Shown: one piece after another, positions 7,375 through 10,764 of the stretch
Position numbering within the stretch: position 1 is the stretch's first letter
Layout of the letters: the number at the start of each line of letters is the position of its first letter
From: Nitrospinota bacterium
GTDB taxonomy: Bacteria; UBA8248
DNA length: 64,000 nt
Direction: 5' to 3'
NCBI GenBank assembly: GCA_046581755.1
Contig: JAYGFR010000103.1
Span: 32,001 to 96,000, forward strand
The notes under the pieces: generated by a model
The model's database searches: none
Seen by the model: only the letters and a program-made list of their open reading frames with translations
Told to the model about the DNA's origin: nothing
Program-made: the position numbers and the translations under genes

Positions 7375-8265
7375 CTAACAGAGCATGAATTCTCGTAACA
7401 GAGTGTGAATTCCCGGCGAAACGTCCAGGATGCCGGGGGATTCCCCGGTGGTGGGCCATTTTGATAACCCTTTACCCCACAACAAGATAGGGACTTTATT
7501 GGTTGTGTGGGATGAAATGCTCATATCCTCGATATTGCCGTGGTCGCTGCTGAGGACAAATGTGTCCCGGGCCGGGTCGAGTTCCGCCACGGCGGCACCC
7601 AGGAAGCGGTTCAGCGGCCCGAGAACCTCCAGCGCATCCTCGAATGTCCCTCGGTGACCGGCTATATCTGTCTGAAAAAACTCATATACGAGCAAATCGC
7701 GCGCCCTGGTCATCCGGCCGAGCCGGGCGCCCGCCTCCTCGGGCGAGATTTCCTCGATCTCCAGGCCGGATTCAATGAGGTAACGGTTGGTGAATTCCCG
7801 GTAGACGGCCTCGCCGCGCCGAAGGTGTTCCAGGCGCTTGAGCGGAATCCCCGAGCTCTCGGCCATCACGGTCGTCACCGAGCGGTGGCGGGTTCTCCCG
7901 CGTGAAAAAAAGGCGGGCGTGTAGGCGTTGGCGAAATCCACGTGCGCTCCCCGCTCGCGGGCTTTTCGAAGCAGGCCATCGCGCGCGATGAGCTCCCGGA
8001 GCGCGGCGTTCGGATAGCCCTGCAGGTGGTCCCCCACCAGCGCCGGGGCGTTCCGGCCCGTAAAGAGGGAAGCGCCTCCGGTCGCGCTCTGCGGAGTGCC
8101 GGGCACACCGAGACAGGCATCGGCGGAGATCAGACCAAAGCCCGCCGGGAGGGGGGCGTTTCCGCCGAGGCCGGAGAGCGGCCCCTCATCGAGCGCGGCG
8201 AGCGGGTTGTGCGGCCCCGGGGGGGCGAGCCCCATCCCATCGACGAAAACGAAAAGGATCGCCAA
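7375..8265 (-). CDS. Metalloenzyme-domain protein (alkaline phosphatase superfamily, phosphoglycerate mutase/phosphopentomutase-like)
   Basis: FVDGMG, PQSATG (phospho-Ser site), TDIAGH, SSDHGNIED, HTTN metal ligands. Confidence 0.75.
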   Translation of the reverse strand: MAILFVFVDGMGLAPPGPHNPLAALDEGPLSGLGGNAPLPAGFGLISADACLGVPGTPQSATGGASLFTGRNAPALVGDHLQGYPNAALRELIARDGLLRKARERGAHVDFANAYTPAFFSRGRTRHRSVTTVMAESSGIPLKRLEHLRRGEAVYREFTNRYLIESGLEIEEISPEEAGARLGRMTRARDLLVYEFFQTDIAGHRGTFEDALEVLGPLNRFLGAAVAELDPARDTFVLSSDHGNIEDMSISSHTTNKVPILLWGKGLSKWPTTGESPGILDVSPGIHTLLREFMLC

Positions 8266-9315: not shown

Positions 9316-9347
9316 AAAAAAAATCGCCACGGGCCGGGCCCCGTGGC
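9316..9347 (-). terminator. Intrinsic terminator in the aroF 5' leader (attenuator terminator)
   Basis: Minus strand GCCACGGG-gcccgg-CCCGTGGC followed by GA-T8, about 30 nt upstream of the aroF start. Confidence 0.85.
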
Positions 9348-9410
9348 TGATTGAATAATTTGCGTCGCCGGGGCGGATCGGCATGTCCCCCCGCCGCCGC
9401 CCGGGGTGGA

Positions 9411-9500
9411 TCAACCGGAGCCGGCGCGCGGGCGGACGGGGGTAAAGCCGAAATAGAATCGCCCCCTCCACCATCCAGCCTGAACCGGCATCTCGCGCAT
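9411..9500 (-). CDS. Aromatic-rich leader peptide of the aroF attenuator (MREMPVQAGWWRGRFYFGFTPVRPRAGSG)
   Basis: 29-codon ORF (alternative ATG at 9491) preceded by GAAGGG. Contains TGG TGG and TTC TAT TTC GGC TTT. Lies between a promoter and a terminator. Confidence 0.8.
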   Translation of the reverse strand: MREMPVQAGWWRGRFYFGFTPVRPRAGSG

Positions 9501-9540
9501 GACCCAAAACCCCTTCAAAAACCGTCCGAAACGAGGCTGA

Positions 9541-9569
9541 AACCTACCTCCGCCCGCCCCGCCCGTCAA
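9541..9569 (-). promoter_or_regulatory. sigma70-like promoter of the leader-aroF transcript
   Basis: TTGACG-N17-TAGGTT on the minus strand, about 40 nt before the leader ATG. Confidence 0.65.
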
Positions 9570-9606
9570 GCCGGGAAGCGGGCCAGGGACCCGCTCCGGA
9601 CCCTTA

Positions 9607-10764
9607 TTAAGAGACCCTTCGGAGCCGCCGCCGATTCTTACCACTGGGGCGGAGCGCCTCTCCGCCGAGGACGACGCATACCGCTTCGAGCATCCGCCCG
9701 CCCCGCCGATGGGCACCCTCCGAGTCGGTGAACCGGAACCTCCCCTCCCTCATCCGCAGCACCGCCACATCCCCCCGCGCGCCGGGCCGGAGGGTTCCGA
9801 TCTCGCCCTCCATCCCGAGCCAAGCCGCCGCCGTCTGGGTGCTCAGGCGCACCACCTGGCCGAGCGAAAAGCCCAGCGCCAGGAACTTGCTCATCAGGTT
9901 CGGAAAATCATAGACGGGCCCGTCGATGCAATGGGTGTGAAGATCCGTGCTCAGGTTGCCGGGCATGAGCCCCTGGGCCATCGCGGCATCGAGCGTATCG
10001 AAACTGAAACTCGCCCGCCCGTGGGCAACGTCGAGGAGGATTCCCCGGTCCCGCGCCTCCCATACCGCCCGGCGGACCCGCCCCCGCCGATCGAGGATGC
10101 CCTCGGCCCTTCCGTGAAAGGCGTGGGTGAGGACATCGCCCGGGCGGAGCTTTTTGAGGATCTTGGGCAGCGAGTCGGGCGTGTCGCCCACATGCACCAT
10201 GAGAGGCACCCTCAGGGCCCTTGAGGCATCGAGGGCGGCATCGAGCGGCCTGCCCCCGCTGCGCTCGACCACGTTCCGGCTCAGGCGGACTTTCATGCCG
10301 AGGAGAATGTCCCGGTTCCTCCCATAACACTCCACCGCGTCCTCCACCCGGAGCGCCCGCATGTCCACGTTCTCCCCCAGCCCGTCGATGAGGAGGCCGC
10401 CCGCCGAGATGTTGAGAAACGCGCGAGTGGTCATCCGCGCCGGATCGAGGAATCCGCTCCTGAAAGTGGAGAACGTCTGGGAGCCCGCGCTGCCGGTGTC
10501 CACCGCCGCCGTCACCCCGCGCGCGAGCATGGACGCCTCGAGGTTCATCCCGTAGTGGCTCACCCCCTCGAAGAAATGACAGTGCAAATCGACGAGACCG
10601 GGCGTGACGATCCGCCCCCGCGCGTTCAGCGTGGGCCTTCCGCGCGGCTCGATGCGGGGCGCGATGCGGCGGACGCAGCCCGCGCGAATCTCCACGTCCA
10701 TCGTCCCCTCGAGGTCCTGGGAGGGATCGACCACATAGCCGCCTCGAATGATCAGATCGGACAC
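9607..10764 (-). CDS. Amidohydrolase/deacetylase-family metallohydrolase (dihydroorotase-like)
   Basis: Start reassigned to GTG (SDLIIRGGYVVDP). PGLVDLHCH, DTGSAG, GMKVR, MVHVG, LTHAFHG, DVAHG, STDLH. Confidence 0.88.
   Translation of the reverse strand: MSDLIIRGGYVVDPSQDLEGTMDVEIRAGCVRRIAPRIEPRGRPTLNARGRIVTPGLVDLHCHFFEGVSHYGMNLEASMLARGVTAAVDTGSAGSQTFSTFRSGFLDPARMTTRAFLNISAGGLLIDGLGENVDMRALRVEDAVECYGRNRDILLGMKVRLSRNVVERSGGRPLDAALDASRALRVPLMVHVGDTPDSLPKILKKLRPGDVLTHAFHGRAEGILDRRGRVRRAVWEARDRGILLDVAHGRASFSFDTLDAAMAQGLMPGNLSTDLHTHCIDGPVYDFPNLMSKFLALGFSLGQVVRLSTQTAAAWLGMEGEIGTLRPGARGDVAVLRMREGRFRFTDSEGAHRRGGRMLEAVCVVLGGEALRPSGKNRRRLRRVS

Follow-up and report, generated by a model that had tools for sequence, protein, structure and literature searches.

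A putative ribosome-mediated attenuator with an extra relay hairpin upstream of the DAHP synthase gene aroF in a Nitrospinota bacterium

The aroF locus and its leader region

The window analysed here is a stretch of 64,000 nucleotides from a Nitrospinota bacterium (assembly GCA_046581755.1, contig JAYGFR010000103.1, positions 32,001 to 96,000). Coordinates given without a contig name are positions in this window, and all features described in it lie on the minus strand. The regulated gene, aroF (9283-8267), encodes a DAHP synthase I family protein with an N-terminal ferredoxin-like domain. This identity, proposed in the original prediction, was confirmed by matches to PRK08673 (498 bits against a cut-off of 335), PF00793 and, at the N-terminus, PF18152. 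The best solved-structure matches of residues 1-335 include 1rzm and 1vr6. We take these to be the Thermotoga DAHP synthase, whose N-terminal domain is presumably the site of inhibition by tyrosine and phenylalanine, and assume the aroF product to be a type I-beta enzyme.

A metalloenzyme-superfamily gene (8265-7375) starts 2 nt past the aroF stop codon and is likely co-transcribed with aroF; its function is, as far as seen, non-aromatic. This gene (7375-8265) adjoins aroF in three families (f1, f2, and f3) and is followed here by rodZ-like and mfd genes. TrpR was not found in this 96.5% complete genome, and the T-box family (RF00230) had no match in the region or in the genome. A second aroF copy of one related genome (L035 in G009) has no leader or terminator within 400 nt upstream.

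The region upstream of aroF contains a predicted sigma-70-like promoter (9569-9541), composed of a -35 element TTGACG (9569-9564), a 17-nt spacer, and a -10 element TAGGTT (9546-9541). Its consensus match is 8/12, and matches of this quality fall below the threshold of the promoter scan, which is why the scan listed 0 promoters in the region. TTGAC is kept in all 26 leader-bearing loci of relatives, followed 17-18 nt further on by TAnnnT in 21 of them. A weak Shine-Dalgarno-like sequence, GAAGGGG (9516-9510), lies 9 nt ahead of the ATG of a leader ORF of 29 codons (9500-9411); most relatives have a purine-rich stretch ahead of the leader start. The encoded peptide carries W10 and W11 followed by F15, Y16, F17, G18, and F19, and its family-conserved core reads [FY]FGF-x-x-VRPRA.

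An intrinsic terminator (9352-9316) follows. It consists of arm E (9347-9340), a loop, arm F (9333-9326), and a U8 tract (9323-9316); the 8-bp stem (9347-9326) is lengthened by an AAUC:GAUU pairing (9352-9349). The aroF ribosome-binding site, AAGGAG (9297-9292), lies outside the terminator hairpin. Translational control by sequestration of this site was considered and rejected, because the site is located 19 nt beyond the U tract. The promoter, the ORF with its aromatic codons, the terminator, and the ribosome-binding site were all found where they had originally been placed.

Promoter, terminator, and free fold are not striking individually. One terminator-like site was observed against 0.9 in shuffled sequences, and the complete leader, folded freely, is of ordinary stability compared to shuffles (z -0.78). 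The aromatic cluster and the switch do stand out from chance. Six aromatic residues in ten codons have P=2e-5 at the codon usage of this genome (a single test), and six among all 29 leader codons have P=0.015. Of 200 shuffles of the sequence separating the stop codon from the terminator, 2 reached the switch observed and 4 the segment-1 pairing observed. A genome-wide leader scan revealed two other short aromatic-rich ORFs with terminators among 103 pairs; as the scan missed the trpE leader described below, this background rate is only rough.

Parts of the stretch are represented in 14 RNA runs, of which eight were compared, all as contigs. One RNA contig spans 9295-9522 and another covers the predicted promoter (9511-9677); starts, ends, and levels are not readable from such contigs, and DNA may have been present.

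Competing helices and covariation

Six segments of the leader transcript, named A to F, can pair in mutually exclusive ways. Segments B (9437-9422), C (9404-9385), and D (9382-9366) correspond to segments 1, 2, and 3 of the original prediction. B pairs with C in the state expected for a ribosome stalled at or before F19. The partner of C is B in the stall state and D in the translated state, and D takes part either in the C:D relay hairpin or in the D:E antiterminator. B begins 6 nt past the last Phe codon throughout the family and 5 nt past it in family f4.

A competing helix between segments 1 and 2 had been predicted, and it is conserved. The register proposed at that time (-31.8 kcal/mol) is, however, weaker than the one conserved in relatives, in which 9437-9422 pairs with 9399-9385 (-36.4 kcal/mol). 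For B:C and the terminator together, 92.5% of cells were paired, against at most 53% when slid, and with 0 of 500 shuffles. One pair of B:C was changed on both sides and seven on one side. The terminator helix E:F had 98.8% of cells paired, with three of its eight pairs changed on both sides. The pairing originally suggested between segments 2 and 3 is borne out by C:D, which was paired in 85.4% of cells and had one pair altered on both sides in five sequences.

The antiterminator D:E (9374-9367 with 9347-9338) is a computed fold sharing the 5' arm E of the terminator, with a computed stability of -13.4 against -19.4 for E:F. No two-sided change was seen in any single register of D:E, and the register varies between groups. 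In 6 of 21 sequences the terminator arm reads GCCGUGG; there, D is CCACGG and pairs with it. That D follows the altered arm agrees with the predicted pairing of segment 3 with the 5' arm of the terminator.

One arm was absent from the original scheme. Segment A (9472-9462), located within the WW-R-G codons, is predicted to pair with B if no ribosome covers it (-21.2 kcal/mol), forming a protector-type hairpin. Mean A:B pairing over 26 leaders was 0.82 compared to 0.65 in shuffles, a modest excess, and A:B prevails at equilibrium in 9 of 37 leaders. It is the weakest-supported of the helices, and a candidate RNA polymerase pause hairpin. With arm A present the polarity of the attenuator is ordinary; an inverted-logic reading of the layout was dropped once this arm had been found.

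Conservation of the leader across the phylum

Of 41 related genomes, 40 had a match to aroF, and 30 loci were retrieved. In 26 of these, an aromatic cluster lies within a leader ORF that is accompanied by a terminator. The four loci without a leader or terminator (L013, L015, L022, and L024) all belong to one AT-rich genus of the same family (g4) with genomes of about 2 Mb, which suggests that the leader was lost on streamlining. A covariance model trained on 21 leaders matched 44 of 51 phylum genomes, the training sequences accounting for 21 of the matches; its best match lay just upstream of aroF in all 27 of the 44 matched genomes that were checked by coordinates. Two leader-bearing loci, L026 and L027, were missed by the model, which brings the count to 46 of 51. 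Within this genome, second matches of the model had E values of 0.06 at best, and five weak second matches in relatives corresponded to terminators or to coding sequence without an aromatic leader. At gathering score, no Rfam family was found in the leader; the seven matches returned (E 0.7-9.8) were all far below it.

Four families share the leader ORF, its control codons, the distance of these to B, and the alternative helices, and the element is kept despite different upstream genes in the relatives. The majority of the leaders belong to a single genus and do not count as independent cases. The alignment of aroF upstream regions showed the expected leader and covarying stems; Trp and Tyr codons were not invariant in it, and Phe was (32 of 32 leaders). 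Nitrospinota and Candidatus Tectomicrobia lineages are described as grouping together in GTDB (PMC10839748).

Ribosome-masked folding and the proposed mechanism

Folding of this genome's leader with the ribosome masked was performed with the ribosome edge at +12 and the transcript cut ahead of arm F. With A-site codons 8-19, B:C was 0.77-0.90 and D:E 0.60-0.77. At codon 20, these values fell to 0.12 and 0.17, respectively, and from codon 21 to the stop C:D was about 0.8, except for codons 25-26. The flip occurs just past the last Phe codon, F19. Moving the edge from +12 or +13 to +15 places a stall at F19 itself on the terminating side.

Similar behaviour was seen in a set of 37 leaders, that is, 38 distinct leaders minus L052, in which no D motif was found. 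B:C was 0.84-0.91 up to the last Phe codon and decreased to 0.49 one codon later, to 0.19 at +2, and to 0 at +3, while sequestration of D rose from 0.25 to 0.72. The switch was present in 29 of the 37 leaders and ran oppositely in two, where C had been picked for D by the script. With another segment picker, 24 of 38 leaders switched and five ran oppositely; D was mis-assigned in five rows. Once arm E was made, a clear difference between stall and stop was seen in 14 of 45 leaders, with three opposite cases (the terminator was mis-picked in two rows), and in many leaders of genus g8 D:E is still present when the ribosome has reached the stop codon. In the full-length equilibrium fold the terminator forms at almost every ribosome position, because D:E is weaker than E:F. 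Read-through would accordingly need kinetic trapping of D:E, which we infer to form first and to persist.

These data are best explained by a ribosome-mediated transcription attenuator containing an additional relay hairpin, a reading to which we assign a probability of roughly 85% on the strength of conservation and modelled folds. Assuming that transcription starts at the predicted promoter and that the leader is translated, the element would operate as follows. With aromatic amino acids plentiful, the ribosome would pass F19 and unwind segment B. C would then pair with D, the terminator E:F would form, and transcription would end near 9316. A ribosome stalled anywhere from W10 to F19 would cover A and leave B free to capture C, so that D could bind the emerging arm E; with D:E formed, RNA polymerase would read into aroF. 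This is the logic originally proposed, in which a stall allows 1:2 and the antiterminator and full translation allows 2:3 and termination. Conservation, covariation, and the masked folds of truncated transcripts speak for it; the effect is weak after arm E is made and absent from the full-length equilibrium fold.

Related leaders before other genes and in another class

In this genome, a Trp leader with WPW and a third W codon is followed by a terminator ahead of trpE (L159; G000:C107, minus strand, approximately 20591-20430). As read from the ORFs, trpE heads the array trpE-trpG-trpD-trpC-ORF-pheA-hisC-tyrA-cmk-rpsA. At least two Trp codons were present in the trpE leaders of all 29 loci examined, one of the 30 returned having been left out. 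A B-like segment of these leaders pairs straight with the terminator arm, and the scaffold is related to that of the aroF leader. Of the 29 trpE leaders, 23 were scored; 17 of these switched and one ran oppositely.

The simple form, in which B pairs directly with the terminator arm, also occurs before aroF, in L059 and L063. The latter belongs to a Syntrophaceae genome (G058), whose class we take to be Syntrophia. Within this class aroF was matched in 58 of 61 genomes, and 30 loci (L194-L223) were examined. Their aroF leaders have a direct B:terminator antiterminator and two terminators in tandem. Twenty-one of the 30 passed the leader filter, and all 21 switched (0.96 to 0.14); Phe, Tyr, and Trp codons were all present in 20 of the 21. 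The remaining nine loci were not scored and contained the terminator motif in 9/9 and the B motif in 8/9 cases.

Several observations were made beside these. Downstream of aroF in L063 lie aroB-like and pheA-like ORFs. Two further covariance model matches were found in the same genome: a WWW leader of the relay form before a tryptophan-synthase-beta-like gene (L193; G058:C30:8586-8696), and a leader with a Phe run before a solute-binding-protein-like gene (L189; G058:C10:27660-27809), both genes being named from reading the sequence. Upstream of aroF in L067, L099, L103, L105, and L109, which include Gemmatimonadaceae and Bryobacterales/Bryobacteraceae, there are likewise short F/Y/W-rich ORFs accompanied by terminator-like hairpins; the RNA sequence differs in these loci. 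Masked folding of L067, L099, L103, and L109 gave no matching switch.

Comparison with known attenuators

The aroR-aroF attenuator of Corynebacterium glutamicum was reportedly described by Neshat et al. in 2014. Its leader peptide includes Phe-Tyr-Phe, and it is stated to respond to phenylalanine limitation and to be unaffected by tyrosine (PMC11802643); the aroR leader was likewise predicted in PMC4046766. As in the element described here, a leader peptide precedes a DAHP synthase gene, F15-Y16-F17 resembles the Phe-Tyr-Phe of aroR, and a stalled ribosome raises transcription, as is proposed here. Unlike the present leader, aroR has no reported Trp codons in the available descriptions, answers to phenylalanine only, and belongs to a different phylum; the two are likened by description and not by homology of sequence or structure. 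The original suggestion that no characterised example is known must therefore be narrowed, since a Phe-Tyr-Phe leader before aroF has been tested. It holds for leaders with all three residues: our literature search, which covered few subscription papers and no supplements, revealed neither a tested F+Y+W leader nor one from this lineage.

The element shares with the class of E. coli pheL-pheA and trpL cognate codons in a leader ORF, hairpins that exclude each other, an intrinsic terminator, and a stall that leads to read-through (PMC3082878). As described in the same source, pheL has four segments (1:2, 2:3, and 3:4) with a single amino acid repeated in a run, and it controls a branch enzyme. 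The aroF leader differs from it by an extra relay hairpin (A:B, C:D, and E:F versus B:C and D:E), by mixed aromatic codons, and by its position before the shared first step. In its mode of action, the element would work like pheL and aroR, and it differs from them by the relay hairpin together with the mixed codons.

The his attenuator of Salmonella and E. coli has six segments, with three terminating helices opposed to two antiterminating ones. The topology inferred here matches this layout. The his attenuator senses histidine via seven tandem codons, and no sequence similarity to the present leader was shown; its general mechanism is covered in PMC3896937.

For Thermus thermophilus and Vibrio, attenuators were also predicted upstream of DAHP synthase operons (PMC1173090). 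These likewise place a terminator and an antiterminator ahead of the DAHP synthase gene; they are predictions only, and no leader peptide or codons are described in the accessible part of that paper. Among the leaders given in PMC2659441 is one for aroF of Shewanella. No aroF leader appears in the available text of PMC1262725, PMC2965389, PMC3896937, and PMC11857589; the main text of PMC2965389, as far as accessible, mentions neither aroF nor DAHP, and supplements of attenuator surveys may list such leaders.

Amino acids sensed and alternative explanations

The control codons were surveyed in 32 distinct family-type leaders, mostly from one genus, over a 12-codon stretch that closes with the last Phe codon. 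Phe was present in all 32, Tyr in 24, and Trp in 9; all three occurred in six leaders, and neither Tyr nor Trp in five. Counted by genus, Trp was present in 7, Tyr in 10, and all three in 6 of 12 genera. Trp makes up 7.3% of the codons upstream of the core (mean over 12 genera) compared to 1.05% in the genome. Phe, Tyr, and Trp interchange at positions -9, -8, -5, and -3, the last of these varying between TTT, TTC, and TAT. Synonymous change is nearly absent from the core TTC-GGC-TTT, which may therefore be conserved at the RNA level. The control codons of 38 leaders are predominantly U-ending (TAT 42 to TAC 4; TTT 81 to TTC 56), while the usage of this genome is 35:65 for TAT:TAC and 30:70 for TTT:TTC.

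Among the explanations compatible with attenuation, one is a true three-input sensor, in which starvation for tryptophan, tyrosine, or phenylalanine alone would each cause clear read-through. For this genome we consider it a tentative reading that falls short of even odds. Stalls at W10, W11, and Y16 keep B:C and D:E in masked folding, the Trp enrichment upstream of the core and its spread over 7 of 12 genera point in the same direction, and all three residues are found in the deep-branching L025, L030, and L059 as well as in 20 of the 21 simpler leaders of the related class. Against this stand the low counts of Trp (9 of 32) and of all three residues (6 of 32), and L002 of the same genus, whose leader has neither Trp nor Tyr. 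The Trp codons here pair in A:B (0.75 and 0.92), and this pairing could explain their retention. Also, a separate Trp leader is already present before trpE, and the single Tyr codon in the F-Y-F of C. glutamicum is stated to be without effect (PMC11802643).

The opposite reading, a sensor of phenylalanine only with Tyr and Trp codons being structural or neutral, appears to us similarly doubtful. It agrees with the presence of Phe in every leader, exactly at the switch point, with the five leaders free of Tyr and Trp, and with the aroR precedent, which answers to phenylalanine only (PMC11802643). It is at odds with the interchange of Phe, Tyr, and Trp at four positions and with the near-universal F+Y+W content of the related leaders in another class. 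We predict from the folds and the codon census that the element responds mainly to a shortage of charged tRNA-Phe, probably with weaker input from tRNA-Tyr and tRNA-Trp in this genome. The originally proposed sensing of all three aromatic amino acids is thus retained in part: input from tyrosine and tryptophan is plausible, and the family is Phe-centred.

Two other explanations concern the attenuator itself. TnaC is a ligand-sensing arrest peptide and provides the model for the first of them, in which the nascent FFGFxPVRPRA would stall the ribosome over B at high free aromatic amino acid and thereby favour termination. Within the family, conservation of the peptide core is indeed strong, and in the folds with a stall at codons 21-24, C:D forms and the antiterminator does not. 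The residues past the Phe run are, however, accounted for by B:C pairing, and the peptide changes (YFGGFR-stop in other families, VCP in the other class) while the RNA scaffold stays, which makes an arrest peptide very improbable. Least probable is that the element simply terminates the upstream amidohydrolase gene, or acts as a constitutive dampener, the ORF being incidental, for although a single terminator-like site equals the shuffle expectation, the RNA-library contig 9511-9677 spans the promoter region, and two other aromatic-rich ORF and terminator pairs exist among the 103 in the genome, the ORF, control codons, spacing to B, and alternative helices are kept across four families with varied upstream genes.

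Reuse of the scaffold and possible origin of the relay hairpin

Codon content tracks the target gene on one scaffold, and this is the best argument for selection of mixed aromatic codons. A possible joint interpretation, which we offer with less than even confidence, is that a modular scaffold (B = GUC[CU]GCCC with a GG[CU]GGAC-like partner) would be reused in at least two bacterial phyla, with control codons swapped per target: Trp codons ahead of trp genes, Phe codons ahead of a transporter, and codons for Phe, Tyr, and Trp ahead of DAHP synthase. The last arrangement would then represent a true three-input OR gate on the entry step of the shikimate pathway. In the lineage studied here, a duplicated terminator hairpin would have become the relay, and the sensor would have drifted from pan-aromatic towards Phe.

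In family f4, the sequence of the terminator recurs in the C:D hairpin, and the loci of the Syntrophaceae class have tandem terminators; from this we infer that the relay hairpin may have arisen by hairpin duplication. The occurrence of simple and relay forms side by side suggests how attenuators gain segments. The mechanism as such is textbook, which limits the surprise. If correct, our reading would add an uncultured phylum, and a second class for which our searches returned no report, to the known range of leader-peptide attenuation. The series from F+Y+W to Phe-only leaders on one scaffold would also offer a natural set for examining how many codons of each type the sensing of several amino acids requires.

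In L154 of a relative (G027:C6, upstream of 607323), the aroF promoter and the terminator are kept, while the leader ORF and the middle segments are absent. This segment was apparently lost between repeated GCCGCGGG motifs, which may reflect a real loss or an assembly collapse. The corresponding locus of the sister genome (L150; G028:C1:405118-405267) contains both the leader ORF and the middle segments.
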